Assembly: GCA_964596685.1 (NCBI GenBank)
Contig: CAZQVA010000007.1
Location: 11,026-75,025, forward strand
Direction of reading: 5' to 3'
Origin: an uncultured bacterium
Lineage (GTDB): Bacteria > Chlamydiota > Chlamydiia > Chlamydiales > VFKH01
DNA length: 64,000 nucleotides
Position 1 is the first letter of the stretch. The number at the start of each line of letters is the position of its first letter. Below the pieces are notes generated by a model. The model made no database searches. It worked only from the letters and a program-made list of their open reading frames with translations, and had not been told where the DNA came from. Shown piece after piece: positions 6,080 to 57,774 of the stretch. Made by a program: the position numbers and the translations under genes.

Positions 6080-7056
6080 GCCAACCAACACCCCCACCCA
6101 CACCTCCTGCAACGCCTCCACCATCTGCAACCACGCCAGTCAAAAATCCCGCTAAAAAGCGCTCATTCCTACAATGGATTATCTATCTCATCTTACTCTT
6201 ACTTTTAGCATGGGGTATCTGGAATTGGATGAATTATGCTAAAACGCACATTTCAACTAACGATGCCAATATCGATGCTTTCCATGTAGAAGTGAGCTCA
6301 GATCTGCTGCTGAGACTCATGCAAATGGAAGTTGATATTGGAGACTATGTAGAACAGGGACAACTTCTCTGTCAACTCGACACAAGAGTCCTCTTTCCCC
6401 AGCAACAGGCAGCGCTTGCAGAGTTAGAACAAGCAAACGCCCAACTCGATCTCGCCTACGTATTGCGTGCCCGCACTTATGATGATTATGAAAGGGGTGT
6501 GCGAGGATTTAATTTTAAAATCGTTTCGGTACAGGATTTTGACCACTTACAAAAGGCCTATGCTGCAGCCGAACAAGAGGTTAATGTCGCTCTAAAGCGC
6601 ATTCAAGCCGCCAAAGAGCAATTAAACGTCATGAATGCTTATCTTGAAAAAGCGCGCATTTTTGCTCCCATGAATGGAACTATTGCTAGACGCTGGAGTA
6701 TGGAGGGAGATGTCCTATCACCTGGGCAACCTATCTACTCTCTTTATGCGATGGAAAATCCCTGGGTCACCGCTTTTCTCCAAGAAGCTGATATCGCTCA
6801 TGTTCAATTAGGTGATCGCGTAGACATCCACGTCGACGCCTTTCCCGATCGTAAATTTTTTGGTCACGTGCTTATTATTGGCCCTGCAGCTGCAGGACAG
6901 TTTTCTCTCGTACCGCCCAATAATGCAACAGGTAATTATACAAAAGTAGCACAACGTATCCCATTGAGAATTTCCATTGCTCCAGAAGATGCTGGCAAGC
7001 AGCCTCATTTACGCGCAGGTATGTCTTGTGAAATTACAATTCACACCGAGAGATGA
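6076..7056 (+). CDS. HlyD/EmrA-family membrane fusion protein with Pro-rich N-terminus
   Basis: ATGA overlap with the tolC-like stop. N-terminus PTPPPTPPATPPPSATTP, then a single TM, a coiled-coil region and a beta-barrel C-terminus (VAQRIPLRI). The ORF track starts at GTG 6064. Confidence 0.75.
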   Translation: MSQPTPPPTPPATPPPSATTPVKNPAKKRSFLQWIIYLILLLLLAWGIWNWMNYAKTHISTNDANIDAFHVEVSSDLLLRLMQMEVDIGDYVEQGQLLCQLDTRVLFPQQQAALAELEQANAQLDLAYVLRARTYDDYERGVRGFNFKIVSVQDFDHLQKAYAAAEQEVNVALKRIQAAKEQLNVMNAYLEKARIFAPMNGTIARRWSMEGDVLSPGQPIYSLYAMENPWVTAFLQEADIAHVQLGDRVDIHVDAFPDRKFFGHVLIIGPAAAGQFSLVPPNNATGNYTKVAQRIPLRISIAPEDAGKQPHLRAGMSCEITIHTER

Positions 7057-8687
7057 TGGCACAAAAAGCCCTTCTTAATTGGGATAACCCTTCTGTTGTC
7101 TCTGATACAAACACCCTCAAACCTTGGTTCATTCATGCCATCATCAGTATTGTGACTGTCTTGGCAATTATCTCATCAGTGGGCACTTCGATTATTAACT
7201 CCAGCATGGCTGGTGAACTATATCTCGGCCAGTCGGTAATCATCTGGGTGAATACTAGCTTTTTAATGATGCTCGGTGTCTGTTTACCCGTATGTGGATG
7301 GCTCGCTGAAAAAATTGGCTTTAAACGTGTTTTCTGCCTTGGAGTGATTATCTTTAGCGTTTCTTCCGCAGGAATTGCTCTGTCTCAAAATGCCACAGAG
7401 CTCATCTTATTTCGCATTTTGGAAGGAACTGGCTCCGCTCTTGTCTTTCCCGTGAGCTTAGCGATCCTAGCTCACACTTTTGCTCCCAAACAAGTTCCTA
7501 TGGCAATCTCTTTGTATGTCACCATTGGATTTGGCTTAGGGATTGTTTTAGGGTTTATATTAGCTGGGTGGATTGGTCAATATTCCAGCTGGCAAATGCT
7601 TTTTTGGATTAACCCCATACTCGGTGTGCCATGTCTCATCGGAGCCATCGCACTCTTTAAAGAGACGCCACCTAAAGTCAATCAACCTCCTTTCGATATT
7701 CCCGGATTCATTTTCTTTAGTGGCTTTCTCGTTGCGGCCCTCGTTTTAATCAATAGCGTCAAAGCACCCTGGAATACAAAAGGGTGGTATTCGAATTTTA
7801 TTTACATTTGCTATGGAATAGGCGGCATCTCCTTGATTTGTTTTTTTGTACGCCAATACTTTACCCCTGCTCCGCTCCTTAACCTTTCCCTTTTCAAAGT
7901 GCGCCCTTTTACTGTTGGCTGTACCATCTTAGCAATCGCTGCAGGGCTTATGTTTGGAACGCTCAACATTAACCCGCTTATCCTAGAAAATGTACTACAA
8001 TATGACAAAATCACTTCAGGCATCTTAATGTCAAGTTGTGGAGTAGGATTAGCTGTCATGGGCCTTTTAGCTAGTTTAATGACGCGCTTTATCAATGTCC
8101 GCTACCTCACTATCATCGGACTTAGCGTTATTATACTCAGTTGTTATCTCTCGCAATGGATCACCATTCAAACTGAAAATTATTTGCATGTCCTTCTTAT
8201 GTTATTGCGCTTCTGTGGCGTAGGGCTTGCCCTTGGTCCCGTCACGTCGCTTGCTCTCATGGAGCTTACAAAGGAAGATGCAGGTCAAGGTGCTGTAACT
8301 GCAACATTTTTTCGTCAAATGGGTGCCGCTTTTGGCAGCTCAATTCTCACCATTATTATCAATTCGCAATTTGCTTTTCACAACTTGACATATGGCAGTC
8401 AAATGGATATCTCTTCGCCAGCCTATGAATATCACTTGCGCCAACTCACTAATCATATTTACCATTACACCTCTCACTCTCTACAAGAGGCTGAGTCACT
8501 AGCGAAGGGACAAATTGTAAACTATATCGAAGGACAAGCTTATATCAGCGCGATCAATGATGCCTACATGATCGCAGGAGTTGCTCTATCGTGCGCAGCT
8601 CTTGGATTAATATTGGTCATGATTGATAATTATCGCCTTAAGAAAAAACGTGAGAAACAAGCTCATGCAGCTATATCTAGGACTTGA
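7053..8687 (+). CDS. MFS drug:H+ antiporter, EmrB/QacA (14-TMS) type
   Basis: 544 aa, highly hydrophobic with ~14 predicted TM segments. MFS motif region WLAEKIGFKRVF. Overlaps the hlyD-like stop. Confidence 0.75.
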   Translation: MMAQKALLNWDNPSVVSDTNTLKPWFIHAIISIVTVLAIISSVGTSIINSSMAGELYLGQSVIIWVNTSFLMMLGVCLPVCGWLAEKIGFKRVFCLGVIIFSVSSAGIALSQNATELILFRILEGTGSALVFPVSLAILAHTFAPKQVPMAISLYVTIGFGLGIVLGFILAGWIGQYSSWQMLFWINPILGVPCLIGAIALFKETPPKVNQPPFDIPGFIFFSGFLVAALVLINSVKAPWNTKGWYSNFIYICYGIGGISLICFFVRQYFTPAPLLNLSLFKVRPFTVGCTILAIAAGLMFGTLNINPLILENVLQYDKITSGILMSSCGVGLAVMGLLASLMTRFINVRYLTIIGLSVIILSCYLSQWITIQTENYLHVLLMLLRFCGVGLALGPVTSLALMELTKEDAGQGAVTATFFRQMGAAFGSSILTIIINSQFAFHNLTYGSQMDISSPAYEYHLRQLTNHIYHYTSHSLQEAESLAKGQIVNYIEGQAYISAINDAYMIAGVALSCAALGLILVMIDNYRLKKKREKQAHAAISRT

Positions 8688-9309
8688 TCCTACACGACTC
8701 GCTCCACATGCGCATCACTACCCAATCATTGAAATTCATCCCCTACCCCATGCACTTGATCCCCTTATCGCATTCTGGCATACAGCTTCTCATATCATTT
8801 TTTCGAGCCGAACAGCTGTAAAAATTTTTTATCAGGAATCCCTTTCTCTAAGACTTCCCATTGATCATTTTCAAATACTGAGTATAGGGCAGGCAACTAC
8901 TGAACTAGCTACCGAATTGGGCTTCCGAGTCACTGCCACAGCACCGATTGCGCAGGCTGAGGGATTTCTTACCATCCTTCCTCCTAAAAACACCCTTCTC
9001 TTTTATCCCCACGCCAAGGGGGCTCGCGACGTGCTAAAAACAATGCTCCTAGAAGGACAGTATGCCTTTAAGGAAGCTATTTTGTATGAAACGCGGCCTA
9101 AAAACACACTAGAACCTATTGACCTCAAACTTTTTACGACACTCATCTTTTCAAGTCCCTCCTGCGTTCAAGCCTTTCTCCACCATTTTGGCACATTCCC
9201 CCCTAACACCACCCTCTTAGCAATTGGTGAAATCACACTTCACGCATTGAAAACCGCTCTTAGCCAGTTGAAACTGGACTTTAGACATGCGTCAATGTGT
9301 GGGGTGTAA
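8665..9309 (+). CDS. hemD: uroporphyrinogen-III synthase-like (HEM4 family)
   Basis: Two-lobed pattern IIFSSRTAV...ILSIGQATTELA and LIFSSPSCV...LLAIGEITLHAL typical of HemD. I chose the start at ATG 8665. The last two codons and the stop lie inside repeat element B1. Confidence 0.55.
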   Translation: MQLYLGLDPTRLAPHAHHYPIIEIHPLPHALDPLIAFWHTASHIIFSSRTAVKIFYQESLSLRLPIDHFQILSIGQATTELATELGFRVTATAPIAQAEGFLTILPPKNTLLFYPHAKGARDVLKTMLLEGQYAFKEAILYETRPKNTLEPIDLKLFTTLIFSSPSCVQAFLHHFGTFPPNTTLLAIGEITLHALKTALSQLKLDFRHASMCGV

Positions 9310-9772
9310 TTCAAAGTGTTAGTTAACTATTTAGAGCTAAAATGGAAGCTTTTCTTAAGGATTCACCAGACAACCTTCTGCCAAAAAATCCTTATTTTCC
9401 CCCTCTGTGCGCTCTGTGGGCTCTGTGGTAAATATTTTTATTTAAAACTTATGTTAATTATTTTGAACCACAGAGCCCACAGAGCGCACAGAGGGTACAT
9501 AAACTGTTATACATTATTCTGAATGAGAATTAATAGGGACTGGAGTGGGTATTAAAAGAATAGACTTCTTTCGAAATTATCTTTGATGGAAAAATTTACG
9601 GTTTTTACGCAGTTTGATCGCTAAATTTTGAGAGCATATGTGGACATATGGTCGATAAATTTAGGGATCAAGATGATAAAAAACGTAATTTTAATAACAA
9701 AGATAATTTCGAAAGAAGTCTAATATGAGTCTCTAGTTTTTCATCCTTCCTAACACTTTGAATTACACCCCA
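9300..9772. mobile_element. Family-B MITE-like element, copy B1 (carries a nested D element)
   Basis: Perfect 23-nt terminal inverted repeats TGGGGTGTAATTCAAAGTGTTAG / CTAACACTTTGAATTACACCCCA, flanked by ATGTG on both sides (9295-9299 and 9773-9777). Internal perfect 28-bp hairpin arms at 9401-9428 and 9468-9495. Homologous to 18396-18714 and 57468-57774. Confidence 0.8.
9561..9722. mobile_element. Family-D palindromic element, copy D1, nested inside B1
   Basis: Termini are TAGACTTCTTTCGAAA ... TTTCGAAAGAAGTCTA. Copies B2 and B3 read straight through the insertion point (AGAAGAATAYGAGTC), so they act as empty sites. Confidence 0.8.
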
Positions 9773-9818
9773 ATGTGCGTCAAAAGTAGAATTAATGTCG
9801 ATCTCACTTTAAACTATT

Positions 9819-9984
9819 GACTGGACTTTAGACAAAATCTAATGTTTTTAAAGCGGTAGCTCCAGAGTAGATTTGAGGCGGGGTGTCATCGTGCATAGCT
9901 TCAGCTATTCGCGATGATGCACCGCCTTAAAGATGCTCTAGAGATATCCCTGTAAAAATATTAGATTTTGTCTAAAGTCCAGTC
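9819..9984. mobile_element. Family-E palindromic element, copy E1
   Basis: 166 bp with termini GACTGGACTTTAGACAAAATCTAAT ... ATTAGATTTTGTCTAAAGTCCAGTC and long internal pairing. Second copy at 54973-55138. Ends 32 nt before the sctU start. Confidence 0.8.
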
Positions 9985-10016
9985 TTAAGTAGAGCTACGC
10001 TGTGAGTTAAAAAGAT

Positions 10017-11081
10017 ATGGGTGAAAAAACCGAACAGGCGACCCCGAAGAAGCTGCGCGATGCGCGGCGCAAGGGACAAGTCGCCAAATCAGAAGACTTT
10101 CCTTCAGCCATTACCTTTATTGCAGGAATTGGTCTAACACTTGGTACAGCAGATTATATCTATACCAAGATGGGCTCATACTTTGTTGCTGTCTTTCGTA
10201 TGAGTGCATCAACAGACATTCAAACCAAAATCGGTGGGCTCATGTCCAACGCTTTGACTGTCATCATCGCTGCCTCTTTACCAATTGCAGGCATCGTTGC
10301 GGCACTGGGCATCCTAACACGCTTTCTTATCACAGGCCCTGTTTTCTCCACAGAAGTGTTCAAACCAAACTTCAAGAAATTTAATCCCGTCGAAAACATT
10401 AAACAAAAATTTAAATTTCAAACTGTTTTTGAACTTCTTAAGTCGACGCTCAAGCTACTAATCGCAGGGATATTAATTTATTATACGATGAAAGAAGGCG
10501 TCAAAGAGATCATTCAGGTTGCTTCACTGCCGCTTATGGGCTCTGTTTTGCTCTTTAAAGAGCTTCTTATTCGCGTTGTCATTCGCGTAGGAATTTTTTT
10601 CATCATTGTGGCACTTTTTGACTTGATCTACCAAAAATTGAACTTTGCAAAACAGATGAAAATGGAAAAGTTCGAAATTAAGCAGGAATATAAAGATACA
10701 GAAGGAAACCCTGAGATCAAAAGTAAACGCCGCTCGATTGCACAAGAAATTGCCTACCAAGATCCTACTTCAGCGGTTAGACGTTCAAAAGCACTCATCA
10801 CTAACCCCACACACATTGCTATTGCCATTGGCTATGAACCAGAGCAGTATTCTGCCCCTTTTATTCTCGCCAAAGGGATGAACACATTGGCTGAAAGAAT
10901 GATTCAAGAAGCACTTACTTTTAATATTCCGATCATGCGCGATGTCCCCCTAGCAAGAAAACTCTTTGAAACTGGGCAGGTGATGCAATATATCCCAGAA
11001 GACACTTATGAAGCTGTTGCAGAGATCTTGCGCACAATCTTGGCGGAAGCCCCTGGAGAATTTAATCCCGAAACAAGTTGA
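10017..11081 (+). CDS. sctU: type III secretion export-switch protein SctU (CdsU/YscU/FlhB family)
   Basis: N-terminus MGEKTEQATPKKLRDARRKGQVAKS, four TM segments, and the autocleavage motif NPTH (LITNPTHIAIAI). Confidence 0.95.
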   Translation: MGEKTEQATPKKLRDARRKGQVAKSEDFPSAITFIAGIGLTLGTADYIYTKMGSYFVAVFRMSASTDIQTKIGGLMSNALTVIIAASLPIAGIVAALGILTRFLITGPVFSTEVFKPNFKKFNPVENIKQKFKFQTVFELLKSTLKLLIAGILIYYTMKEGVKEIIQVASLPLMGSVLLFKELLIRVVIRVGIFFIIVALFDLIYQKLNFAKQMKMEKFEIKQEYKDTEGNPEIKSKRRSIAQEIAYQDPTSAVRRSKALITNPTHIAIAIGYEPEQYSAPFILAKGMNTLAERMIQEALTFNIPIMRDVPLARKLFETGQVMQYIPEDTYEAVAEILRTILAEAPGEFNPETS

Positions 11082-11084
11082 ACT

Positions 11085-11247
11085 TATACCCATTTCACCT
11101 GAAGAATTGGTTTTAGACCGAGAGAAAGCCCCGGGCTCGAGCCATCAAAAAAGTCCCCATATTAGTAATATGAGGACTTTTTTGATGGCTCGATCGCGGG
11201 AGCTTTTTCTTCGGCCTAAAACCAATTCTTCAGGTGAAATGGGTATA
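11085..11247. mobile_element. Family-A palindromic element, copy A1 (between sctU and sctV)
   Basis: 163 bp with termini TATACCCATTTCACCTGAAGAATTGG ... CCAATTCTTCAGGTGAAATGGGTATA and nearly full-length arm pairing. GTTGAAC lies on both sides (11077-11083 and 11249-11255), offset by 1 nt from each end. Confidence 0.85.
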
Positions 11248-11338
11248 TGTTGAACCACTAAAAGAAAAAAATTGGCAGCGGAAAATGCTGCTTCTAGAGT
11301 AGATTATGAGTATGCACCCACAGGCAAGAAATTAAGAA

Positions 11339-13465
11339 ATGAGCGGAATTTTCAATAAAATTGGCACCTCTCTAGGCAATGAAAAGGCGCTCACAGCTAT
11401 TTCAAAATCAAGTGATTTGATACTAGCCGGCTGGATTGTGGCGATCATCACTATGATGATTATTCCTATTCCACCTGCCATCATCGACCTTGTTATTGCT
11501 TTTAACCTGACTGTGGCTATCGGCCTTCTGATGGTGGCTATTTACATCCCCAGTGCTTTGCAACTGTCGATGTTCCCATCACTATTATTGATCACTACAC
11601 TGTTTCGCCTTGGCGTCAACATCTCTTCAACGCGCCAAATTCTATTGCACGCCTATGCAGGGCATATCATTCAGACCTTTGGTAATTTCGTCGTGGGTGG
11701 TAACTTCGTCATCGGTGGTATCATCTTCGTCATTATCGTCGTTGTACAATTCATCGTTGTGACTAAAGGTGCTGAGCGCGTTGCTGAAGTAGCTGCTCGC
11801 TTCCGCTTGGACGCGATGCCAGGTAAGCAGATGAGTATCGACGCAGATATGCGTGCAGGAGTGCTCGACGCAACACAAGCGCGTGAAAAGCGCGCGCTCA
11901 TCCAGCGCGAAAGCGAAATGTATGGTGCGATGGATGGAGCGATGAAGTTCGTCAAAGGGGACGCGATTGCTGGAATGATCATTACCGTCGTCAACGTTAT
12001 TGGCGGGCTGATCATCGGAACTGCTATGCATGGAATGTCCACGATACAAGCAGCACGCGTATATTCTCTTTTGTCAATTGGTGACGGACTCGTTTCTATT
12101 ATCCCCTCTCTGCTCATCTCCGTTACAGCAGGTATCGTCACCACTCGCGTTTCAAGTGACCGCTCAGATAGCAACCTGGGTCGTGAAATCTCTACTCAGA
12201 TTTTTAAACAACCACGTGCGATTCTTATCGCTGCAGGCGTACTCGTTTTAATTGGAATCATCCCGGGATTTCCTACCACCGTGTTTTTCCTGTTAGCTAC
12301 GGTTTTGGGACTGGTGGGCTATAATTTGACGGTCAACCAAAAGCGCAAAGCTGCAAAATCGGGTGGACCAGAAGGCGGCATTGTAGCTACCGATGTAGAA
12401 GGTCATAGTGTGGTGACTCCAGGAAAAGAAGATTTTGCGCTCACACTTCCGGTCATCTTGGAGACAGGTAAAGGGATTTCAAAACTTGTTAATGAAAAAT
12501 CAGGACAAGTCTTTATTGATGAAATGATCCCGCGCATGCGTTTGGCCCTGTACCAAGATATGGGCGTCCGCTATCCCGGCGTACACGTACGCACAGATGC
12601 TCCTCACTTGGAAGCTGATGAATATCTCATCCTTTTGAATGAAGTACCGATTATTCGTGGTAAAATTTTTCTCGGATATATTTTGTGCAATGAATCTCAA
12701 GAGAACTTATTGCGCTATAATATCCCTGCAAAGACCTACCGAAATAATTTAGGTCTTCCAAATGTCTGGGTAGAAGAGCGCTATACCGAGATTGTAAAAA
12801 AAGCGGGCATCAAAATGTGGTCCCCTTTAGAGGTGCTCATCCTTCACCTCTCCTACTTCTTTAAGCACTATTCCAATGAATTTGTTGGGATCCAGGAAGT
12901 GCGCGCCATGTTGGAATTTATGGAAAAATCTTTTCCTGATCTCGTTAAAGAAGTCACACGCCTCGTTCCTCTTCAAAAACTTACGGAGATTTTTAAGCGT
13001 CTTGTACAAGAAGAGGTCTCCATCAAAGATTTGCGCACTATTTTAGAATCACTCAGTGAATGGGCACAAACAGAAAAAGATACCGTTCTTCTCACTGAGT
13101 ACATTCGCTCTTCACTAAAGCGTTATATCAGTTTCAAACACTCACAAGGTCAATCCACACTTTCTGTTTACCTACTCGATCCTGAAATCGAAGATATGGT
13201 CCGCGGAGCAATTAAGCAGACATCAGCTGGCTCTTACCTCGCCCTTGACCCTGATTCTGTGCAGTTAATTCTCCAAGCAATGCGCACAACGATTTCTCCA
13301 ACAACAGCAAGAGGACAACCTCCCGTACTCCTGACAGCAATTGACGTGCGTCGTTTTGTTCGTAAACTTGTTGAAATGGAATTCCCCAATGTCGCGGTTG
13401 TCTCCTACCAAGAGATTATCCCTGAAATTCGCATTCAACCGCTGGGGCGTATTCAAATAAGCTAA
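11339..13465 (+). CDS. sctV: type III secretion export gate SctV (CdsV/LcrD/FlhA family)
   Basis: 708 aa. N-terminal multi-TM domain with the FHIPEP motif RFRLDAMPGKQMSIDAD, and a large cytoplasmic C-terminal domain. Confidence 0.95.
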   Translation: MSGIFNKIGTSLGNEKALTAISKSSDLILAGWIVAIITMMIIPIPPAIIDLVIAFNLTVAIGLLMVAIYIPSALQLSMFPSLLLITTLFRLGVNISSTRQILLHAYAGHIIQTFGNFVVGGNFVIGGIIFVIIVVVQFIVVTKGAERVAEVAARFRLDAMPGKQMSIDADMRAGVLDATQAREKRALIQRESEMYGAMDGAMKFVKGDAIAGMIITVVNVIGGLIIGTAMHGMSTIQAARVYSLLSIGDGLVSIIPSLLISVTAGIVTTRVSSDRSDSNLGREISTQIFKQPRAILIAAGVLVLIGIIPGFPTTVFFLLATVLGLVGYNLTVNQKRKAAKSGGPEGGIVATDVEGHSVVTPGKEDFALTLPVILETGKGISKLVNEKSGQVFIDEMIPRMRLALYQDMGVRYPGVHVRTDAPHLEADEYLILLNEVPIIRGKIFLGYILCNESQENLLRYNIPAKTYRNNLGLPNVWVEERYTEIVKKAGIKMWSPLEVLILHLSYFFKHYSNEFVGIQEVRAMLEFMEKSFPDLVKEVTRLVPLQKLTEIFKRLVQEEVSIKDLRTILESLSEWAQTEKDTVLLTEYIRSSLKRYISFKHSQGQSTLSVYLLDPEIEDMVRGAIKQTSAGSYLALDPDSVQLILQAMRTTISPTTARGQPPVLLTAIDVRRFVRKLVEMEFPNVAVVSYQEIIPEIRIQPLGRIQIS

Positions 13466-13486
13466 TAGAAGGTGCTTTGAAAGTCC

Positions 13487-14656
13487 ATGTCAGATCATGT
13501 TAATCTTAACACAGCTGCCATCGAACGCAATCTTCAACAGCAAATGTCGCGCGAAAATGCCGCACAACAAGTTGCTAGTCAAGAAAGCCTAGACTCTTTG
13601 TGTGAAGAGATTATCAATCCTTGGGCTGCCAGTCAAGCCGACAAAGAACGTTTTCAAAAATCCCTACAAGAACGTAAGACACATTTCGCTAATGCCATAC
13701 AAAAAGCCAAAGGAGAAATAGCAGAAGGGTCAACTCCCCTAGAACAAGCTGCAGCCCAGTTTGAGGCAGCGCATCCCGAACTCAATGCGCGTTCTTTAGT
13801 GAATGCTTTTCTCGCTTTAAGTGACAAAGATTCCGATGCACAACTTTTACAGCAACTACAGGAAGCTTTTCCTGATGTTACGCTCACGGATGATGCCCTT
13901 GAATTTTGCTTACAGCATGCAAAAAGCCCTCTTTTGGAAAAATTGCAAGCCGCAAAAAGCCGTTTAGAGAAACAATTTACCCGTCAAATTGCTGCTGGAC
14001 GGAATGTGAGTCATGAAGCACAAACTTTTGCTCAGAAGGGAATCGGCTCACCAACCGCTTTAAGAGAACTTTATCGCGATATTACCGGTAATCCACGCGA
14101 AGCAACTCCCCTTTTTACAGAACTCTCACAAAAATACAACTTTGGGCAATTGAAAGCTGTCATTCAGTTTCTATTGCATGCTCTAGGGAGCGATCTGCGT
14201 TCAAAAGGCCCTTCTATACAACCCGCAGAATTAACACGTCTCTTTACAGAGGCACGTACTCTGCAAGCCATCTTTGGTGTATACCGCTTTTTTCAGTCGC
14301 GCATGTCTCTTTTGGGTAAAATGTTTGCCGCCCACAATCAACACGTCCCCTCTGCCATCACTTTTGAATCGATGGCGCGTGCATTTATGAAATTACTCGA
14401 TGATCGCTTTCCCAATGCATCAAAAGCTAGACAAAGCGCCCTTCAAATGGGTTTAAGAGATGAACTCGAATGTTTAATCGCTGTCATTTCACAATGGAGA
14501 GATGCCGTACATAATGTTTCAGTCCGCTTATATCGTTCAATTGCTCACCGCGATGAGTTACTCAATTCAATTATTGCCTGTCTTGAGGAATTAGAAGATG
14601 AAGCTGACGAAGAAGAGGATACTCCCAAAAAAGACAACCCCAAAGATGGAGGATAG
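13487..14656 (+). CDS. copN: T3SS gatekeeper, CopN/SctW (YopN-TyeA-like)
   Basis: 389-aa helical protein with an acidic tail. It sits between sctV and a SycE-like chaperone, as copN does in Chlamydia (cdsU-cdsV-copN-scc1-malQ). Confidence 0.65.
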   Translation: MSDHVNLNTAAIERNLQQQMSRENAAQQVASQESLDSLCEEIINPWAASQADKERFQKSLQERKTHFANAIQKAKGEIAEGSTPLEQAAAQFEAAHPELNARSLVNAFLALSDKDSDAQLLQQLQEAFPDVTLTDDALEFCLQHAKSPLLEKLQAAKSRLEKQFTRQIAAGRNVSHEAQTFAQKGIGSPTALRELYRDITGNPREATPLFTELSQKYNFGQLKAVIQFLLHALGSDLRSKGPSIQPAELTRLFTEARTLQAIFGVYRFFQSRMSLLGKMFAAHNQHVPSAITFESMARAFMKLLDDRFPNASKARQSALQMGLRDELECLIAVISQWRDAVHNVSVRLYRSIAHRDELLNSIIACLEELEDEADEEEDTPKKDNPKDGG

Positions 14657-14659
14657 GCG

Positions 14660-15103
14660 ATGATTGACCGCGTCTTACAAGACTTAGCTCTCTTCTTTCA
14701 CACGACTCTTACCATCGACGCGAATAATACGTGCCTTTTAGAAGTAGGTGATCTAAAAGTACATATAGAGGCGAATAAAGAAAGCACTTTCGTTATTGTT
14801 GGAATTCTTTTAGATGTCTTTTTACCACCAGGAGCCTTTCGAGAGCAGGTAGCTACTCTGGCTTTAAAATGGAATTTTGCTTATGGAGAACATGAAGGGA
14901 TCTTTGCCCTCGACTCTAGAAAAAATAGCTTAATTTTTTATGACCTCTTCCCTATTGACATGGAACCTGCAGCCCTGCATAAGGCCATCACATCAATGAT
15001 CGGACAGGCTGCGCCTTGGAAAGAGGCTCTTGCAAGAGATCATCTGCCCGATATCTCTTTGGCAAAAGTCACAACTGCACCTTCAATTTTTGGGTTAAGA
15101 TGA
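14660..15103 (+). CDS. scc1: T3SS class I chaperone (Scc1/SycE/CesT-like)
   Basis: 147 aa. Starts 3 nt after copN and overlaps malQ by ATGA. Size and position match chlamydial scc1. Confidence 0.6.
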   Translation: MIDRVLQDLALFFHTTLTIDANNTCLLEVGDLKVHIEANKESTFVIVGILLDVFLPPGAFREQVATLALKWNFAYGEHEGIFALDSRKNSLIFYDLFPIDMEPAALHKAITSMIGQAAPWKEALARDHLPDISLAKVTTAPSIFGLR

Positions 15104-16680
15104 CACACTCTTCTTTATTGCGTTCTCCCTCTGCAAATAATTGGCAACGCATCGGTATCAAGCATCATCATGGGATCAACATTCCTCTCTTTGCGCTTTA
15201 TTCTGCAAAAAGTGCGGGCGTAGGAGAAATTCCCGATCTCCTACCTGTCATCGACTGGGTAAAATCAGTCGGAATGGATGTCATTCAGCTACTGCCTATT
15301 AATGATACAGGCGCCGACGCCAGCCCCTATAATGCACGCTCTGCATTTGCTCTTAACCCAATTTTTTTAGGAATCGCTTCATTAGAAAATATTCCAGAAG
15401 AACTTCTCCCTGCTTTAAAAGAGCTCCAGGGGATGACAGGCAAGCGCCCTATCCCTTACGAAGAGATCAGACCGAAGAAAATTGCTTTCATTAGAGATTA
15501 CGTCACGGCACAGGCAGCCAATTTTCGCACGTCCGAGAGCTATCAAACGTTTTTACAGGAAAACACCTATTGGCTCAGTGGCTACGCACTTTTTTGCCTG
15601 CTCAAACGCCGATTTGATCAAAAACACCACTCTTTATGGCAACCCCCATTCTCTATACCGACGCCAAAAGTCATTGAAGAATGGTTAGCACAAGAGGCCG
15701 CAGAAGTTGAGATCATCTATATGATGCAATATCTCTTGTTTCAGCAGTTCACTGCAGTCAAAGCATACGCTGAAAAGCTAGGCGTCTTTATCATGGGAGA
15801 CATCCCTATTTTAATCAGTCCAGACAGTGCCGATGTATGGCAGTGGCCAGGGTTCTTTCACGATTTATTAAGCGCTGGAGCGCCCCCAGACATGTATGCA
15901 AAAGATGGTCAGAGCTGGGGATTTCCTCTTTACCACTGGAAAGCCCTCGAGCAAGTCGATTTTATCTGGTGGCGGCAGCGCCTTAAAACAGCTGAGCGTC
16001 TTTTTCATCTCTTCCGCATCGACCACGCTGTCGGATTTTTTCGCATATGGGCAGTTTTGCAGGGGAAAATCGCCAAGGAGGGAGCCTTTGTCCCCCATGA
16101 AGAAACATTTTGGAAGGATCACGGGACACGTCTCTTAAAAATGCTTATCGATAGTTGTGCGATGCTTCCCATTGCTGAAGATCTCGGTGTAGTCCCCCCC
16201 TTCGTGCGCGATGTCCTTGTCGACTTAGGGATCTGTGGTACACGGGTAATACGCTGGGAACGTTTGTGGAAACAATGGCCTGCTCCCTTTATCCCCTATG
16301 ATCAGTATCTTCCTGAAAGTCTAACAACTGTTTCTACCCACGATTCCTCACTTTTGCGCCAATGGTGGCAGGAGCAAAAAGACGAATCTCAAGCCTTCTG
16401 CGCATTTAAAAAATGGAATTGGCAAGAAAAACCGACGTTAGATCAAATCAAGACAATCCTTAAAGATTCACATCAAACGGCTAGTCTATTTCATGTCAAT
16501 TTATGGCATGAGTACTTCGCTCTTTTCCCTGAATTGCGATATGATAGAGTGGAAGATGATCGCATCAATCAACCAGGCGTCATCTCTGATCACAACTGGT
16601 CTTTTAGGTTTAAGTGCCCCCTTGAGGAGATTTGCCAATTCGCCCCCTTGCAAAATTTAGTCAGAGAATTACTCTCCTAA
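15100..16680 (+). CDS. malQ: 4-alpha-glucanotransferase (GH77 amylomaltase)
   Basis: N-terminal pattern GIKHHHGINIPLFALYS..SAGVGEIPDL..VIDWV...VIQLLPIND is typical of MalQ. I chose the start MTHSS (ATGA overlap with scc1), giving 526 aa. The ORF-track start at 15016 lies inside scc1. Confidence 0.9.
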   Translation: MTHSSLLRSPSANNWQRIGIKHHHGINIPLFALYSAKSAGVGEIPDLLPVIDWVKSVGMDVIQLLPINDTGADASPYNARSAFALNPIFLGIASLENIPEELLPALKELQGMTGKRPIPYEEIRPKKIAFIRDYVTAQAANFRTSESYQTFLQENTYWLSGYALFCLLKRRFDQKHHSLWQPPFSIPTPKVIEEWLAQEAAEVEIIYMMQYLLFQQFTAVKAYAEKLGVFIMGDIPILISPDSADVWQWPGFFHDLLSAGAPPDMYAKDGQSWGFPLYHWKALEQVDFIWWRQRLKTAERLFHLFRIDHAVGFFRIWAVLQGKIAKEGAFVPHEETFWKDHGTRLLKMLIDSCAMLPIAEDLGVVPPFVRDVLVDLGICGTRVIRWERLWKQWPAPFIPYDQYLPESLTTVSTHDSSLLRQWWQEQKDESQAFCAFKKWNWQEKPTLDQIKTILKDSHQTASLFHVNLWHEYFALFPELRYDRVEDDRINQPGVISDHNWSFRFKCPLEEICQFAPLQNLVRELLS

Positions 16681-16686
16681 CGACAC

Positions 16687-16850
16687 TATACCCATTTCAC
16701 CTGAAGAATTGGATTTTAGACCGAGAGAAAGCCCCGGGCTCGAGCCAGCAAAAAAGTTCCCATATTGGTAATATGAGGACTTTTTTGCTGGCTCGATCGC
16801 GGGAGCTTTTTCTTCGGCCTAAAACCAATTCTTCAGGTGAAATGGGTATA
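16687..16850. mobile_element. Family-A palindromic element, copy A2
   Basis: 164 bp, nearly identical to A1 and in the same orientation. Begins 6 nt after the malQ stop. Confidence 0.85.
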
Positions 16851-16897
16851 AACTTCCTTCGAAACCATCTTTCGATGGAAAAATTCGCGATTTTTAT
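16851..16897. repeat. Family-D half element (D4) abutting A2
   Basis: AACTTCCTTCGAAACCATCTTTCGATGGAAAAATTCGCGATTTTTA aligns with the left half of D1 (TAGACTTCTTTCGAAATTATCTTTGATGGAAAAATTTACGGTTTTTA). Confidence 0.65.
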
Positions 16898-18392: not shown

Positions 18393-18395
18393 ATG

Positions 18396-18714
18396 GGGGT
18401 GTAATTCAAAGTGTTAGGCAGGATGAAAAAACTAGGGACTCATATTCTTCTAATACCCACTCCGGTCTCCATTAATTCTCGTTCAAGATAAGGTGTAATA
18501 GCTTATGCACCCTCTGTGTGCTCTGTGGGCTCTGTGGGCTCTGTGGTTAAAAAAATTAACATACGTTTTAAATAAAAATATTCACTAAAGAGTCCACAAA
18601 GCACACAGAGGGGGGGGGAAATAAGGATTTTTTGGCAGAAGGTTGTCTGGTGAATCCTTAAGAAAAGCTTCCATTCTAGCTCTAAATAGTTAACTAAAAC
18701 CTTGAATTACACCC
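18396..18714. mobile_element. Family-B MITE-like element, copy B2 (inverted relative to B1, no D insert)
   Basis: Collinear with the reverse complement of B1. One hairpin arm has four instead of three GCTCTGTGG units and the other arm is decayed. Starts 3 nt after the upstream stop codon. Confidence 0.8.
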
Positions 18715-18715
18715 T

Positions 18716-18813
18716 CGTTGTTTCAGAGGATAGCGGGTGATAAACGCCTTGAAGGTCATGGCCAATATGCCATATCCAAGAGGAGTTTATAAGTAGATGC
18801 CTCTGAAACAACG
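18716..18813. repeat. 98-bp hairpin element (G) abutting B2
   Basis: 14-nt inverted termini CGTTGTTTCAGAGG ... CCTCTGAAACAACG. Only one copy in the window. Confidence 0.6.
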
Positions 18814-26435: not shown

Positions 26436-26601
26436 TATACCCATTCCATCTGAAGAATTGGATTTTAGGCCGAAGAAAAAGCTCTCGCGATCGAGGCAGA
26501 AAAAAAAGGCCTCATATTACTAATATGGGGGCTTTTTTTCTGCCTCGAGCTCGGAGGATTTTCTCGGCCTAAAATCCAATTCTCTAGGTGGAATGGGTAT
26601 A
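26436..26601. mobile_element. Family-A palindromic element, copy A3 (opposite arm order to A1/A2)
   Basis: 166 bp with termini TATACCCATTCCATCTGAAGAATTGG ... CCAATTCTCTAGGTGGAATGGGTATA. Ends 18 nt downstream of the minus-strand ahpC stop. Confidence 0.85.
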
Positions 26602-27342: not shown

Positions 27343-27386
27343 ACAAAAAAAAACATAAGTTCGACTTTAAAGTCGAACTTATGTTT
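27343..27386 (-). terminator. intrinsic terminator of glyQS (perfect 18-bp palindrome plus U-run)
   Basis: AAACATAAGTTCGACTTT/AAAGTCGAACTTATGTTT at 27351-27386 overlaps the glyQS stop by 1 nt. On the minus strand it is followed by a run of T (27343-27350). Confidence 0.75.
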
Positions 27387-28777
27387 TATACAAAATCCTT
27401 GTGGATCATTTGCATAATGGCACCCTTCAAGTCACTAAGCGCTACGCGGTGTTGCTTCATTGTATCTCTATGGCGCAGCGTGACTGTACCTTGTTCTAAA
27501 GTATCGTAATCCACTGTTAAACAAATCGGTGTGCCAATTTCGTCGTGGCGACGGTAGCGCTTACCAATTGCTCCTGCAACATCAAAATCTACCACCCAAT
27601 CTTGTTGCAATTCTTCAAAAATGGTGTTTGCCTGGGCTACTAACTCCTCTTTCTTCATCAAAGGGAATACCGCAATTGTGTAAGGAGCAACGCGAGGATG
27701 CAAATGCAATACTGTACGCGTGTCACCACCCTCCAGCATCTCTTCTTCATAGGCATCACACAGAAGCGCTAAAATTGTACGATCAAGACCAAAAGTAGGC
27801 TCGATCACATGAGGAACAAATCTCTCTCCTGTTTTAGGATCAAGGTACTCTAATCTCTCACCCGAATGCTCTGCGTGACGTTTCAGATCAAAATCTGTGC
27901 GATATGCCAAGCCATATAATTCACTACAACCAAAAGGGAATTCGTAGTGTATATCCACGGTACGCTTAGAATAATGTGAAAGTTTCTCTTTAGGGTGTTC
28001 GTGTAGTTTGAGATGATTGGAGTCAAGACCAATGAACTGGCACCATTCCTGCATAGATTTTAGCCATTGTTCAAATAGCAGTTCCCACTGACTTTCATGA
28101 ATAAAGTACTCAATTTCCATTTGTTCAAATTCAATTTGACGAAAGAGGAAATTGCCTGGTGTGATTTCATTGCGGAAAGCTTTACCAATTTGTGCAACAC
28201 CAAAAGGCACGTGTACGCGCATCGTATCAACGATGTTTTTAAAATCTAAAAAGATGGCTTGTGCTGTTTCTGGACGCAGATAGATCAGATCTTGTGCTCC
28301 CGCTTCAGCAACCTTGCTCAATTGTGTAGCAAACATCAAGTTGAAGTGCCGCGCAGCCGTCCAATCGAATCCTTTGCATTTCGGGCAACGAATCTGTTTT
28401 TCTAAGATAAGCGCTGTCATCTCCTCACAAGACTTACCTTCTACATCCACTCCAATCGCCTCTTCAATGAGATGGTCGACGCGCAAACGCGCTTTACAAG
28501 CCTTACAATCAATTAGTGCATCACTAAAGCCATCGACATGACCAGAAGCCTTCCATGTTTTTGGATGTAAAAAAATAGGGCCATCGAGAGCAAGCATATC
28601 TTTGCGTTGATGAATAAAACGCTTCCACCACAATTCTTTGACGCGACGTTTCATCTCTGCGCCCAATGGACCATAGCTATAGGTGTTTGCAAAACCACCA
28701 TAAATTTCAGAACCAGGGAAAATGAACCCACGACGCTTACAAAGCGCGACGACCGATTTTAGATCTGCTGCACTCAT
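27386..28777 (-). CDS. glyQS: glycyl-tRNA synthetase, homodimeric (alpha2, class IIa) type
   Basis: 463 aa from MSAADLKSVVALCKRRGFIFPGSEIYGG, with class II motifs (YLRPETAQ, FRNEITP, GLDR). The ORF-track start at 28834 adds 19 unlikely residues. Confidence 0.9.
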   Translation of the reverse strand: MSAADLKSVVALCKRRGFIFPGSEIYGGFANTYSYGPLGAEMKRRVKELWWKRFIHQRKDMLALDGPIFLHPKTWKASGHVDGFSDALIDCKACKARLRVDHLIEEAIGVDVEGKSCEEMTALILEKQIRCPKCKGFDWTAARHFNLMFATQLSKVAEAGAQDLIYLRPETAQAIFLDFKNIVDTMRVHVPFGVAQIGKAFRNEITPGNFLFRQIEFEQMEIEYFIHESQWELLFEQWLKSMQEWCQFIGLDSNHLKLHEHPKEKLSHYSKRTVDIHYEFPFGCSELYGLAYRTDFDLKRHAEHSGERLEYLDPKTGERFVPHVIEPTFGLDRTILALLCDAYEEEMLEGGDTRTVLHLHPRVAPYTIAVFPLMKKEELVAQANTIFEELQQDWVVDFDVAGAIGKRYRRHDEIGTPICLTVDYDTLEQGTVTLRHRDTMKQHRVALSDLKGAIMQMIHKDFV

Positions 28778-29475: not shown

Positions 29476-30363
29476 GGGCCGCTGCCTCAAAGAGCTGATT
29501 GCCTACATCAATAAAGAACAATTTGATTTACTTCACTTGCAAGAAGTGACAAGCGGTGTGTTAAGCTTTGCAGATGACACTTTCGAGACATTAAAGCGCG
29601 CCACTGGGCTTCATGGGACTTTGGTCATGGATTCAAAAGTCGATCAACAAGCAAATAGTTATACCCATCCCACCTGAAGAATTGGATTTTAGGCCGAAGA
29701 AAAAGCTTCCGCGATCGCGCCAGAAAAAAAGTCTCCATATTACTAATATGAGGACTTTTTTTCTGACTCGAGCCCGGGGCTTTCTCTTTAGTCTAAAATC
29801 CAATTCTTCAGGTGGGATGGGTATACATAGGAAATGCCACTTTATACCGCCCCCAATGGGTCTACTTAGACCATCATTTCATGCGTTTTCAGCCAGCAGA
29901 AATCATTTCCTATCCGGACACCAAAGATCCTAGTTTACACACTAGATCTGCCATTTTCATTAAATTTAAAACACCCAAAGAGGTATTTTGGAGCATTAAC
30001 ACCCATCTTGCCTGGGGGCCCACTCCACTTGATGAACCTTATAAAGTTAAAGAAGCTACCCTTCTTTCTGAAAAAATCATCACTTTAGACGCCCCTTTTA
30101 TCCTTTCTGGTGATTTCAATGTCACCAGAGAAACACAAACGGCTCATTTACTTGAGCAACATGGCTTTAGCCTAACGCGGCAGCACCAAATACCCAACAC
30201 TCTCAACCCAACTATTCACCGCAGCAAGCATCTTTTTCCAAAGGGTCTAGCTGTCGACTACTTAATTGTTCATCCTTCATTACACTGCGGAGGGTTTACC
30301 TGTGTCACCGAGCCTTCTCTCTCCGACCATTTCGCACTACGCGCCAATTTTAACGATTTATAA
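29444..30363 (+). pseudogene. endonuclease/exonuclease/phosphatase (EEP) family gene interrupted by repeat A4
   Basis: The N-terminal part (MMKFLQLNIY...LLHLQEV, strong AGGAGG RBS) stops at a TGA inside the repeat. The C-terminal part (INTHLAW, ILSGDFNV, SLSDHFAL) resumes in another frame right after the repeat. Removing 164 or 167 nt joins them in frame. Confidence 0.8.
29660..29825. mobile_element. Family-A palindromic element, copy A4, inserted in the EEP gene
   Basis: 166 bp with termini TATACCCATCCCACCTGAAGAATTGG ... CCAATTCTTCAGGTGGGATGGGTATA. ATAG lies next to both ends (29655-29658 and 29827-29830). Confidence 0.85.
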
Positions 30364-37839: not shown

Positions 37840-37863
37840 TAGACTTCTTTCGAAAGAAGTCTA
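37840..37863. repeat. Family-D minimal 24-bp perfect palindrome (D3), possible terminator of the RND operon
   Basis: TAGACTTCTTTCGAAAGAAGTCTA. Lies 2 nt downstream of the RND pump stop (minus strand) and 1 nt from A5. Confidence 0.75.
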
Positions 37864-45030: not shown

Positions 45031-45080
45031 TATACCCATTCCACTTGAAGAATTGGTTTTAGACAGAAGAGAAGGCCCTT
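45031..45080. repeat. Family-A half element (A6), terminus facing the ccoN-RND block
   Basis: TATACCCATTCCACTTGAAGAATTGGTTTTAGACAGAAGAGAAGGCCC. 47 of its first 49 nt are identical to the reverse complement of A5. Confidence 0.8.
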
Positions 45081-50480: not shown

Positions 50481-50555
50481 CAGACTTCTTTTGAAAGCAT
50501 CTTTGTTGTTAAAATTGCACTTTTTAGCATCAAAGACAATTTCGAAAGAAGTCTG
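50481..50555. repeat. Family-D short element (D2)
   Basis: CAGACTTCTTTTGAAAGCATCTTTG...CAAAGACAATTTCGAAAGAAGTCTG is a 75-bp hairpin 20 nt after the sppA stop. Confidence 0.75.
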
Positions 50556-54972: not shown

Positions 54973-55138
54973 ACTGGACTTTAGGCGAAATCTAATATTT
55001 TTAAAGCGGTAGCTCCAGGGCGTATTTAAGGCGTGGTATCATCTGTGCATGGCTTTAGCTATCCGCAATGGCGCACCTCCTGAAAGATGCTTTAAAGCTA
55101 TCCCTAATAAAACCGCTAGATTTTGTCTAAAGTCTAGT
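54973..55138. mobile_element. Family-E palindromic element, copy E2
   Basis: 166 bp, collinear with E1 (AACTGGACTTTAGGCGAAATCTAAT...CTAGATTTTGTCTAAAGTCTAGT). Begins 2 nt after the rho stop. Confidence 0.8.
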
Positions 55139-55318: not shown

Positions 55319-57466
55319 TTGCAAACGCGTATTCGTTTTTTTATTTTTACAGCTCTTTGTGGCACCTTCTTTAGCAGTATATTATATGCACAAACCACAC
55401 CAGAGCAATGGCTTGAAGTGTGTGAAGAGCTCGAATGCTTAGAACGCACGCGTGCTGCCTGCCTTCCGCCCCCCACTCTTTATAATTACTATGGGCAAAT
55501 TGGCTACTTTCAAATGCCAAGTGCGCGTTGTAAAGAAGAGGGCACGGGTGCAATTGGGTTCTCTCTTGTCGATCCTTATGACAATTATTATGCCAGTTTT
55601 CAACTCTTTCGTTTTTTAGAACTCTCAGGTATTTATCGCGTTTTTACGGGGATTGAAGATTTAAATTTGAGCAAATTTGGCTTTGGGGATTTTTCGGACA
55701 AGGGTGTGAATGCTAAATTTACTCTTTTACATGCCCAGGATACTGATTATCGCTTTCCCAGTATTGCTATAGGTGTTGATGACTTCCTAGGATCGTGCGG
55801 TTTTTATGCCTGGTATATTGTGGCTACGCAAGTCCTTCCCAAATACAATTTAGAACTTAGCTTGGGATATGGAATTGAAAGAATGCGCGGTCTCTTTGGT
55901 GGAATCGCCTTTTCTCCCTTTGCTCGTTCTAAAGACCCCGTCCATAAAGGACTGACATTAACAGCTGAATATGACTGTATCGATTATAGCGATCCCGACT
56001 CAGAACCACACCCCGATGGTAGAACTCAAAAGTCCAAAATTAATTGGGGTTTTCAATACCAGCTTGGTCCTTATCTACAACTAACGGCGAGTCGATTGAG
56101 GGGGGAGACCTGGGCAGGAGGTGCAACATTTAACTACAATATCGGAAAGACAACAGGTCTCTTTCCAAAATTTATGGATCCCCCTCTCTACTCTACACCG
56201 ATTGACCATGATCCGATGGGAGAATATCGATCGTTGCGTGCCGTAGTTTGTCAGATGGGTTTTACCTTTGATGACCAGGGGTTTACCCTCTTAGAAGCTG
56301 CCTATTATCCTGCATGCGATGTCTTACGTTTGTATGTTTCAAATGATACTTATCTCAAAGAATGTGTCGTCCATGAACGCATCGTTGCCATCTTAACAGC
56401 TTTAATTCCTCAAAATCTTCATCGCATCGATATCGTTATCGTTGCTGAAAGTATTCCATGCCAGGAATATCATTTTCGTCATAGTGATCTAATACGTTAT
56501 GCAAAAGGATTGATCAGCCCCTGTGAACTAGCCATTCTATCGCGCCTGCGCGAAGTGCCGGGATCAATCAACCACAAGTGTGTTCCCCTGTACAAAAACA
56601 ATGATGTACTGATCGACTGGATCGCTCGTCCACGTTTGCGCACATTTTTTGGTAGCTCTACAGGGAAACTGAAATATGCCATCGATTTAATTGCGTGTTT
56701 TGAGGGATATTTTGGACCAAAAATCTATTACGAACTTGTTCCCGGCTATACTCCCCTTTCAAATACGCAATCACTCGGCAGCTTTGACATCCTCAATCCT
56801 TCTCAATTACTCAACGTCAATTCCGATCGGATTCTTTATTACCAAGCGCGCAATATACGCCTAGAGCAGGGTTTTGTTCAGCGCGCCTGGAATTTAGGCA
56901 AGGGATTCTATCAACGCTTTGGCCTTGGTTTTTTTGATATTGCCTATGCTGGCGTCGCTGCAGAATGGCTCTACTACCCTTTGCACTCCACATGGGCCGT
57001 CGGTCTGGAAGGCGCCCTCTTGCGTAAACGTAATTACTGTGGTTTTGGCTTCCAGGATAAAATTAGAAGATATAGCGGTTACGTTGCAGAATATGTCCCT
57101 TATGTTGCGCTCTTTCAAGGCTTCCTCAATGTCTGGTGGAACCCTGAGCACTTCCCAATCGCCGTAAAATGGAGCCTCGGGCAATTTTTAGCGCGCGATA
57201 TTGGATTAAAAACAGAGGTATTTCGTATCTTTGAAAACGGTCTGCGCCTATCGTTATGGTATACTGTTACCAATGGGCATGATGTCATCAACGGATCTGT
57301 CTACTATGATAAAGGAATTTCTTTTTCCATCCCTCTCGATATCTTCCTTCCAAAATCCACACATACACGTCTTGGCTACGGGATGAGCGCATGGCTACGC
57401 GATGTCGGCTACTGTATTGAAGCGGGGCGTCCTCTCTATACAACACTTTCCGAAGAGCGCAACTAA
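55319..57466 (+). CDS. YjbH/GfcD-family outer membrane beta-barrel protein
   Basis: 715 aa. Signal peptide (TTG start). YGQIGYFQMPSARCKEEG...YYASFQLFRFLE parallels E. coli YjbH FGGVGLLQTPTARMAREG...YSASVQLFPWLE. C-terminal blocks AAEWLYYPLHSTWAVGLEG and GQFLARD...FSIPLDIF also match. Confidence 0.8.
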   Translation: MQTRIRFFIFTALCGTFFSSILYAQTTPEQWLEVCEELECLERTRAACLPPPTLYNYYGQIGYFQMPSARCKEEGTGAIGFSLVDPYDNYYASFQLFRFLELSGIYRVFTGIEDLNLSKFGFGDFSDKGVNAKFTLLHAQDTDYRFPSIAIGVDDFLGSCGFYAWYIVATQVLPKYNLELSLGYGIERMRGLFGGIAFSPFARSKDPVHKGLTLTAEYDCIDYSDPDSEPHPDGRTQKSKINWGFQYQLGPYLQLTASRLRGETWAGGATFNYNIGKTTGLFPKFMDPPLYSTPIDHDPMGEYRSLRAVVCQMGFTFDDQGFTLLEAAYYPACDVLRLYVSNDTYLKECVVHERIVAILTALIPQNLHRIDIVIVAESIPCQEYHFRHSDLIRYAKGLISPCELAILSRLREVPGSINHKCVPLYKNNDVLIDWIARPRLRTFFGSSTGKLKYAIDLIACFEGYFGPKIYYELVPGYTPLSNTQSLGSFDILNPSQLLNVNSDRILYYQARNIRLEQGFVQRAWNLGKGFYQRFGLGFFDIAYAGVAAEWLYYPLHSTWAVGLEGALLRKRNYCGFGFQDKIRRYSGYVAEYVPYVALFQGFLNVWWNPEHFPIAVKWSLGQFLARDIGLKTEVFRIFENGLRLSLWYTVTNGHDVINGSVYYDKGISFSIPLDIFLPKSTHTRLGYGMSAWLRDVGYCIEAGRPLYTTLSEERN

Positions 57467-57467
57467 A

Positions 57468-57774
57468 GAGTGTCATTCAAAGTGTTAGGAGGGGTGAGAA
57501 AAACTAGGGACTCGTATTCTTCTAATACCCACTCCGCTCCTCATTAATTCTCATGCAGCATAAAGCGCAACAGCTTATATGCCCTCTGTATGCTCTGTGA
57601 GCTCTGTGGTTAAAAAAATAATACAAGTTAAAATAAAAATATCTACCACAGAGCCCACAGAGCACACAGAGGGGGAAAATAAGGGTTTTTTGGCAGAAGG
57701 TTATCTGCTGAATCCTTAAGAAGGGCTCCCATTCTAGCTCTGAATAGTTAACTAACACTTTGAATTACACCCCC
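57468..57774. mobile_element. Family-B MITE-like element, copy B3 (same orientation as B2)
   Basis: Collinear with B2 and the reverse complement of B1. The left terminus is slightly eroded. ACTAAA lies on both sides (57462-57467, which includes the yjbH-like TAA stop, and 57776-57781). Confidence 0.8.

Follow-up and report, generated by a model that had tools for sequence, protein, structure and literature searches.

Probable successive insertion of MITE-like elements of three families between hemD and sctU in an uncultured chlamydia-like bacterium

The spacer between a hemD-like gene and the type III secretion gene sctU was analyzed in a stretch of 64,000 nucleotides (hereafter the window; positions 11,026 to 75,025 of contig CAZQVA010000007.1, assembly GCA_964596685.1) from an uncultured bacterium placed in the order Chlamydiales. 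Nearly all of this spacer of ~700 bases consists of small non-coding, hairpin-forming repeat elements of three families, designated B, D and E. [quoted passage not shown] An earlier reading of the same DNA (the original prediction) had proposed successive, independent insertions, and four observations bear this out: D occurs outside B, B occurs twice without D, the D1 insertion has a clean empty site, and B1 is flanked by a 5-bp duplication. The features of the locus are as follows.

8665..9309, plus strand: hemD-like gene (uroporphyrinogen-III synthase), 214 amino acids (aa); Pfam HEM4, E=1.9e-24, residues 16-196
9273..9287, plus strand: solo E terminus ACTGGACTTTAGACA in the hemD 3' end, 15 nt, an exact direct repeat of the E1 left terminus
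9295..9299, no strand: left copy of the ATGTG target-site duplication of B1, read from the sequence
9300..9772, plus strand: B1, MITE-like element of the B family, 310 bp plus a 163-bp D1 insert that includes the duplication
9401..9495, no strand: internal B hairpin, with 29-nt perfect arms of CACAGAG(C) repeats and a 37-nt AT-rich loop
9559..9561 and 9722..9724, no strand: AAT duplication of D1, from manual comparison of B1, B2 and B3; a single AAT in B2 and B3
9562..9721, no strand: D1, full-length palindrome of the D family nested in B1, 160 bp, ends AGACTTC...GAAGTCT
9773..9777, no strand: right copy of the ATGTG duplication, read from the sequence
9778..9818, plus strand: unique spacer, the former hemD 3' end, read through to TGA 9818-9820 before B1
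9819..9984, plus strand: E1, full-length palindrome of the E family, 166 bp, near-perfect; cores of the terminal inverted repeats at 9821-9843 and 9960-9982
10017..11081, plus strand: sctU, type III secretion export-apparatus switch protein (PF01312)

The terminal inverted repeats (TIRs) of B1 (TGGGGTGTAATTCAAAGTGTTAG / CTAACACTTTGAATTACACCCCA, at 9300-9322 and 9750-9772) are 23 nt long and 100% complementary, and the number of such matches expected by chance in shuffled controls is 0. The perfect 23-nt repeats and the ATGTG on both flanks, already described in the original prediction, are borne out by the sequence. Three B copies are present in the window, ~86% identical over ~310 bp, the other two being:

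18394..18716, minus strand: B2, a copy without D, beginning 1 nt past the stop of a transglutaminase/TPR gene
57466..57774, minus strand: B3, a copy without D; the TAA stop of a yjbH-like gene straddles its end

B3 is flanked by TAGTC and TAGTT, a match at 4/5 positions. The internal hairpin has a minimum free energy (MFE) of -65 kcal/mol (z -15 vs shuffles) and is kept in B2 and B3, with one compensatory change from C-G to T-A.

The left terminus of B1, which carries stops in 3/3 frames, contains the third base of a Cys codon, the last two codons of hemD (GGG GTG) and its TAA stop, as had been noted for the final codons and stop. Removal in silico of B1 together with one ATGTG yields a hemD open reading frame (ORF) of 225 codons, 11 longer, ending with TGA at 9818-9820. 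It was claimed earlier that the insertion rewrote the hemD C-terminus. This is true, but the scale is small: only GV* stands in place of VKSRINVDLTLNY* (13 residues to 2; 225 aa to 214 aa). The spacer that once formed the hemD 3' end has no second copy in the window. The TGA used before B1 overlaps the first two bases of E1; this stop would itself have arisen at an element boundary.

D1 breaks B1 where B2 reads AGAAGAATATGAGTC and B3 reads AGAAGAATACGAGTC uninterrupted. Alignment of B1, B2 and B3, as had been proposed, confirmed this continuity with a single AAT, and the interruption lies exactly where it was first placed. The register of the duplication is ambiguous (1-4 nt), with AAT as the solution that gives symmetric ends. 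A duplication of TA/ATA had been suggested. TA only, the duplication of MITEs of the IS630/Tc1-mariner type, was rejected, since the empty site would then exceed that of B2 and B3 by 3 nt, and AAT is the simplest solution. D1 carries its own perfect 23-nt TIRs and is a self-contained palindrome (MFE -68.5, z -12 vs shuffles). Outside B, members of the D family are found at three other loci, giving four D copies in the window when short forms are included:

16851..16896, plus strand: D left-half fragment, adjoining the right end of A2, a copy of the neighbouring family A
37841..37862, no strand: mini-D, a perfect palindrome of two D termini, 22 bp, flanks ATT / ATT
50482..50554, no strand: D2, a short D copy outside any B, 73 bp

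The ATT flanking mini-D is the reverse complement of AAT. Mini-D, which adjoins the end of an A half-copy, is 3 nt away from a stop codon, and a solo D 8-mer occurs at 50474-50481. In two places (16851, 37841) D adjoins an A copy at the right end of the latter, which indicates that elements in this genome commonly land within or beside others. The A-N-T triplets of D suggest a possible resemblance to the ISL2 group of IS5.

E1 lies 46 nt past the end of B1 and, as predicted, ends 32 nt before the sctU ATG at 10017. Its TIRs are 23 nt and perfect, and its fold has an MFE of -103.5 (z -13.6 vs shuffles). A second copy, 82.5% identical to E1, was found in the window:

54973..55138, plus strand: E2, oriented like E1 and beginning 2 nt past the stop of rho

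The solo E terminus codes for KLDFRH within the hemD tail. No similarity beyond these 15 nt, as a degenerate E copy downstream would show, was detected; the terminus may have been left behind by an earlier E copy. A promoter scan of the E1-sctU junction, for which a test of promoter activity had been proposed, gave no promoter-like site above shuffled background.

E1 and E2 are both co-oriented with their upstream gene (n=2, related copies). In both, the sense-strand RNA hairpin is ~20 kcal/mol more stable than the antisense one, and G.U outnumber A.C mismatches in the arms, by 7:1 and 12:5. This strand asymmetry, seen in two related copies, is a hint of constraint at the RNA level.

The order of events can be reconstructed tentatively. 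One or more E-type elements would have reached the hemD 3' end, leaving the solo 15-nt terminus and the complete E1, which supplied the then stop TGA. B1 would next have entered 41 nt upstream of E1, duplicating ATGTG (5 bp) and trimming hemD from 225 to 214 codons. D1 would then have entered a B copy, either B1 in place or its progenitor, with a 3-bp duplication of AAT. The elements are presumably moved in trans, by a cut-and-paste or copy-and-paste mechanism, by transposases that are encoded elsewhere in the genome and recognise the TIRs. After insertion the long palindromes would decay by internal deletion to mini-forms that keep both termini (D of 160, 73 and 22 bp; E of 166 and 31 nt). 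The duplications differ in length per family (B 5 bp, D 3 bp, A 2 bp (TA), E none clear). Together with the distinct termini this indicates separate families, presumably served by different transposases. Flanking TA is absent at B1 and E1; only the neighbouring family A fits TA.

Two papers list as hallmarks of prokaryotic MITEs a small size, TIRs, dispersed copies, flank duplications, AT-rich intergenic sites and stem-loop transcripts (PMC10969869; PMC4133298). The elements described here are small (B 310 bp, or 473 with D1; D 160 bp; E 166 bp), and 23-nt perfect TIRs occur in each of B1, D1 and E1. The 64 kb hold 3 B copies, 4 D copies including short ones, and 2 E copies together with a solo end, where shuffles predict 0. 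Flank duplications are present at B1 (5/5), B3 (4/5), D1 and mini-D. The longest ORFs inside the elements are 68-78 aa; no Pfam domain was found in the one B1 ORF scanned, and a B3 pseudo-ORF had no homologue among 5.8 billion proteins, a route that also gave no further B copies. The family ends read TGGGGTGTAATTC..., AGACTTCTTTCG..., ACTGGACTTTAGAC... and TACCCATTTCACC...

Searches outside the window returned little. The exact B-TIR 21-mer had 0 matches in 185,579 species genomes, among which the genome of the window is not included; a degenerate E-TIR 21-mer gave 2 unpaired matches in the same set (Saccharibacteria, Chloroflexia), which is about the number expected by chance. In the JGI metagenomes the B-TIR was found only as a single solo terminus of ~36 nt, of which 23 nt are identical to the B TIR (L011:1139-1174, JGI contig Ga0180433_10069587). 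This terminus stands 30 nt beyond the stop codon of a gene for an MFS transporter and has no inverted partner within 3 kb; the metagenome contig is AT-rich and otherwise unrelated. The whole region had no blastn matches to plasmids (72,556) or phages. The B ends gave no blastn match to plasmid-borne Tn3-family ends, a comparison that is insensitive for a 23-mer. By eye, the B end agrees at ~13/21 positions with the Tn3 inverted repeat (IR), which is only a lead. No Rfam family was assigned to B, D or E, either for 9000-10300 at a permissive E-value or for the whole window at the gathering threshold; the only matches were sub-threshold and to generic hairpins of microRNA precursors.

A fourth family, A, comprises full-length palindromes of ~163 bp with ends TA-TACCCATTTCACC, and is represented in the window by six copies or fragments:

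11085..11248, no strand: A1, family-A palindrome between sctU and sctV, beginning 3 nt past the sctU stop
16687-16850, 26436-26601, 29660-29825, 37760-37838 and 45031-45078, no strand: other family-A copies or fragments

Compensatory changes were seen in 5/76 pairs of the family-A hairpin (four copies). The fragment at 45031-45078 lies 20 nt upstream of the RNase P RNA gene (45099-45481; Rfam RF00010, 206 bits).

At eight of nine loci outside the hemD-sctU spacer, elements of all families lie 0-21 nt from a stop codon (at 11081, 16680, 18392, 26620, 37866, 50460, 54970 and 57466). At nine insertion loci, the hemD-sctU locus being excluded from this test, the distances from element to stop are 0, 0, 1, 2, 3, 6, 13, 18 and 184 nt, much shorter than expected from uniform placement in the pre-insertion spacer (Fisher combined p ~4e-6). 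This 3'-end bias may result from selection against promoter disruption and not from targeting. The same bias, including overlaps of 1-50 bp with gene ends, is found for the QMITEs of Coxiella (PMC5896051).

A second strain (run ERR7015365) shares 97.5-99.7% identity with the window in this region, and comparison with it showed which parts of the arrangement are shared. The junctions of hemD with B1, of B1 with the spacer and E1, and of E1 with sctU were recovered in Logan assemblies of five runs (L001, L002, L007-L010). In the second strain B1 stands at the same site with both junctions identical, and B3 also occupies its site, so these insertions predate the strain split. The spacer of 9778-9818 is present as well (L002:37-77). 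It is followed by a 31-nt remnant of E1, ACTGGACATTAGATTTTTTCTAAAGTCCAGT, with both termini (L002:78-110), the simplest reading being that the long palindrome lost its interior by deletion. Since the second strain lacks the E1 interior, this is an improbable place for a promoter on which sctU depends. A1 is absent from the second strain, where L002 reads GTTGAAC-GTAC-GTTGAAA; the TA-duplication model predicts the empty site GTTGAAC-TTAT-GTTGAAC, of exactly the same length as in L002. Short-read contigs of both strains end ~30 nt inside B1, E1, A1 and A2, in keeping with multi-copy termini, and the contigs of the second strain break inside B1, so that D1 is unreadable there. E2 and A3 were sought in the second strain by exact-protein search with rho and ahpC, which matched only the strain of the window. 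The claim of recent mobility therefore holds in part: E1 and A1 differ between the strains, but B1 and B3 are shared and D1 cannot be read. Recent turnover is supported for the repeat system as a whole but not shown for B.

In relatives with SctU 63-65% identical, the sctU-sctV gap is 5-16 nt and no trace of B, D, E or A is found. Their compact, element-free arrangement indicates that the invasion of the operon is specific to this lineage. An orthologous hemD-sctU spacer, which the original prediction had hoped to compare for empty sites, does not exist in these relatives; ychF lies divergently upstream of sctU.

Several observations weigh against the transposon interpretation. Flank duplications are absent at B2 and D2, and none at E1 or E2 is convincing. 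The solo E terminus of 15 nt is not cleanly explained. A Pfam scan of 20 of the window's ~40 long ORFs found no transposase, nor does the window contain a longer element or an autonomous insertion sequence (IS) with matching ends, the TIRs occurring only at miniature copies. B1 and B3 are fixed in both strains and no B insertion polymorphism was seen, while the E1 polymorphism resembles deletion and not transposition. The A1 site of L002 differs from the inferred empty site at 4/21 positions, and strain identity shifts from 97.5% to 99.7% exactly at this site (L002 vs window 9960-11086 and 11246-16711); the A1 difference could have arisen by allele replacement through recombination with a breakpoint at the element, instead of by de novo insertion or excision.

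Other explanations of the stack were considered. B with D could be an ancestral composite, with B2 and B3 as deletion derivatives that lost D, and it is in its favour that only three B copies are available in the window and that the B1 interior of the second strain is unreadable. It would require the precise loss of D and one AAT, twice, while D is found alone at three other loci, once between ATT flanks, and is a self-contained palindrome with perfect TIRs of its own. A single ancestral unit, which the original prediction had itself named as the counter-case, fails in the window, where B2 and B3 lack D and D occurs elsewhere without B, and is considered highly improbable. Still less credence is given to the stack being an assembly artefact of collapsed or chimeric repeats. 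Repeats do break short-read contigs here, and independent confirmation is confined to the outer junctions and does not extend to the B1 interior with its D1 junctions. The outer junctions, including that of sctU with A1, are nevertheless identical in independent assemblies and the second strain, and the clean duplication at the D1 junctions, which chimera formation does not produce, disfavours a chimera. It was also considered very unlikely, though slightly less so than these two, that the elements are of REP/BIME type or derive from IS200/IS605 and are moved as single-strand hairpins by RAYT or TnpA(Y1). This would apply most readily to E, a full-length palindrome lacking a convincing duplication. 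REPs are described as 20-40 nt long with GTAG or CGTC heads (PMC3733652), which E, at 166 nt and starting with ACTGGAC, does not resemble. B and D carry duplications, E1, E2 and the solo terminus share no flanking tetra- or pentanucleotide, and the scanned part of the window contains no Y1 transposase gene. REP/BIME membership as such was rejected on the size of the elements (160-310 bp), their ends (TGGGG, AGACTTC, ACTGGAC) and the lack of a RAYT-like gene in the ORFs scanned.

A different possibility is that the elements are hairpin modules of RNA or DNA kept by selection, serving for instance as terminators, as processing sites or to stabilise 3'-UTRs, and that their mobile appearance is secondary. 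Their position just past stops (p ~4e-6) speaks for this, as do the co-orientation of E, its sense-strand excess of ~20 kcal/mol and of G.U over A.C mismatches, and the compensatory changes in family A (5/76 pairs) and in the B hairpin (one). TIRs, flank duplications, nesting and presence/absence polymorphism are, on the other hand, hallmarks of transposons. The hairpins are not followed by a U-tract, and B1, D1 and E1 gave no terminator-like sites when scanned. In the second strain the operon is undisrupted although A1 is missing entirely and E1 for the most part, and relatives lack all of these elements. Sample sizes are moreover tiny, with 2 E copies, and symmetric arms would also be maintained by a transposase that binds both ends. 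The hairpin evidence fits exaptation after insertion and does not exclude mobility; as a replacement for it, this explanation is unlikely. A little more room is left for the speculative extension, itself doubtful, that at least some families (B, E, D) prefer to integrate at or within a few bases of stops, perhaps by sensing gene 3' ends, that the E hairpin is kept as a sense-strand RNA structure in 3'-UTRs, and that the hemD-sctU stack and A1 modulate type III secretion transcripts. If true, both would tune read-through, processing or stability of these transcripts, and strain alleles (E1 full or mini, A1 present or absent) would differ in expression. Any effect of the elements on hemD or sctU expression is an inference. 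The successive insertion of MITE-like elements remains the preferred explanation.

The window has a GC content of 43% and contains a type III secretion cluster with a gene order of the chlamydial type (sctU, sctV (11339-13465), copN, a CesT-like chaperone gene and malQ). The nearest SctU from another species is 65% identical, and exact protein matches were limited to one NCBI contig and to Logan assemblies from a few runs. The organism appears to be an undescribed, deep-branching chlamydia-like lineage. A chlamydial symbiont of Hydra (PMC13229535) was rejected as its identity on GC content, 51% in the symbiont. An identical 214-aa hemD gene call was found in a protein collection (P0122). A word-indexed protein search detected no hemD homologue outside the own species, which indicates that this hemD is very divergent. 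If the ATG at 8665 is used, the hemD start region (8623-8687) has a 23-nt overlap with the upstream MFS transporter gene (7053-8687). Elsewhere in the window, a perfect palindrome of 38 nt (AAACATAAGTTCGACTTTAAAGTCGAACTTATGTTT, 27350-27387) with an A-run and a T-run on its flanks is placed between a tRNA-Arg gene on the minus strand and the stop codon of a gene for a class II tRNA synthetase; it resembles a bidirectional terminator.

Among known systems, the closest parallel was found in QMITE1 and QMITE2 of Coxiella burnetii, MITEs of an obligate intracellular bacterium that overlap gene 3' ends by 1-50 bp (PMC5896051). As in Coxiella, copies supply or displace stop codons, full-length and short forms coexist, and mobile elements are nested (PMC5896051). 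Linkage from strain to strain with occasional differences and transcripts with stable stems are also shared. There is no sequence relationship, and the nested partner in Coxiella is a full IS (IS1111), in contrast to the MITE-in-MITE arrangement found here. The present window also holds at least four families in 64 kb, one of them in a type III secretion operon. Correia elements of Neisseria are ~100-160 bp long with TIRs of ~25 nt, are largely palindromic, intergenic, co-transcribed and strain-polymorphic, and duplicate TA. Unlike these, only family A fits TA here; D1 duplicates 3 bp and B1 5 bp, and E shows no clear duplication. Correia elements and other TA-duplicating MITEs have been reviewed (PMC3184786; PMC2229807).

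TIMEs, which are miniature elements derived from Tn3, have 38-bp IRs homologous to Tn3-family IRs (PMC4133298). B resembles these elements in length (~310 bp vs 262 bp), the lack of an ORF, a 5-bp duplication and termini of the form (T/G)GGGG (PMC4133298). Its duplications (ATGTG at B1, TAGTC / TAGTT at B3) agree with the 5-6 bp of TIMEs. Unlike TIMEs, the IR of B is 23 nt; membership was rejected, as complementarity ends at 23 nt and not at 38 bp. A transposase of the Tn3 family is not known from this organism. Rickettsia palindromic elements (RPEs) are palindromic repeats of ~150 bp in an intracellular bacterium that become part of coding sequences (PMC10969869). They typically insert in frame and add a peptide, whereas the elements here lie at or just past stops, and B1 ends the hemD ORF after two codons. 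The families are unrelated in sequence to QMITEs, Correia elements, TIMEs and RPEs, yet behave in the same way. Literature searches found no description of MITEs in Chlamydiae.

These data add an example to a well-known phenomenon and introduce no new mechanism. The repeats account for the breaks of short-read assemblies at these points and can be used as strain markers. For the biology of this deep-branching chlamydia-like lineage, the analysis points to several undescribed MITE families, with nesting and turnover at the strain level, whose members would successively have trimmed the 3' end of a gene and invaded a type III secretion operon whose counterparts in relatives are compact.

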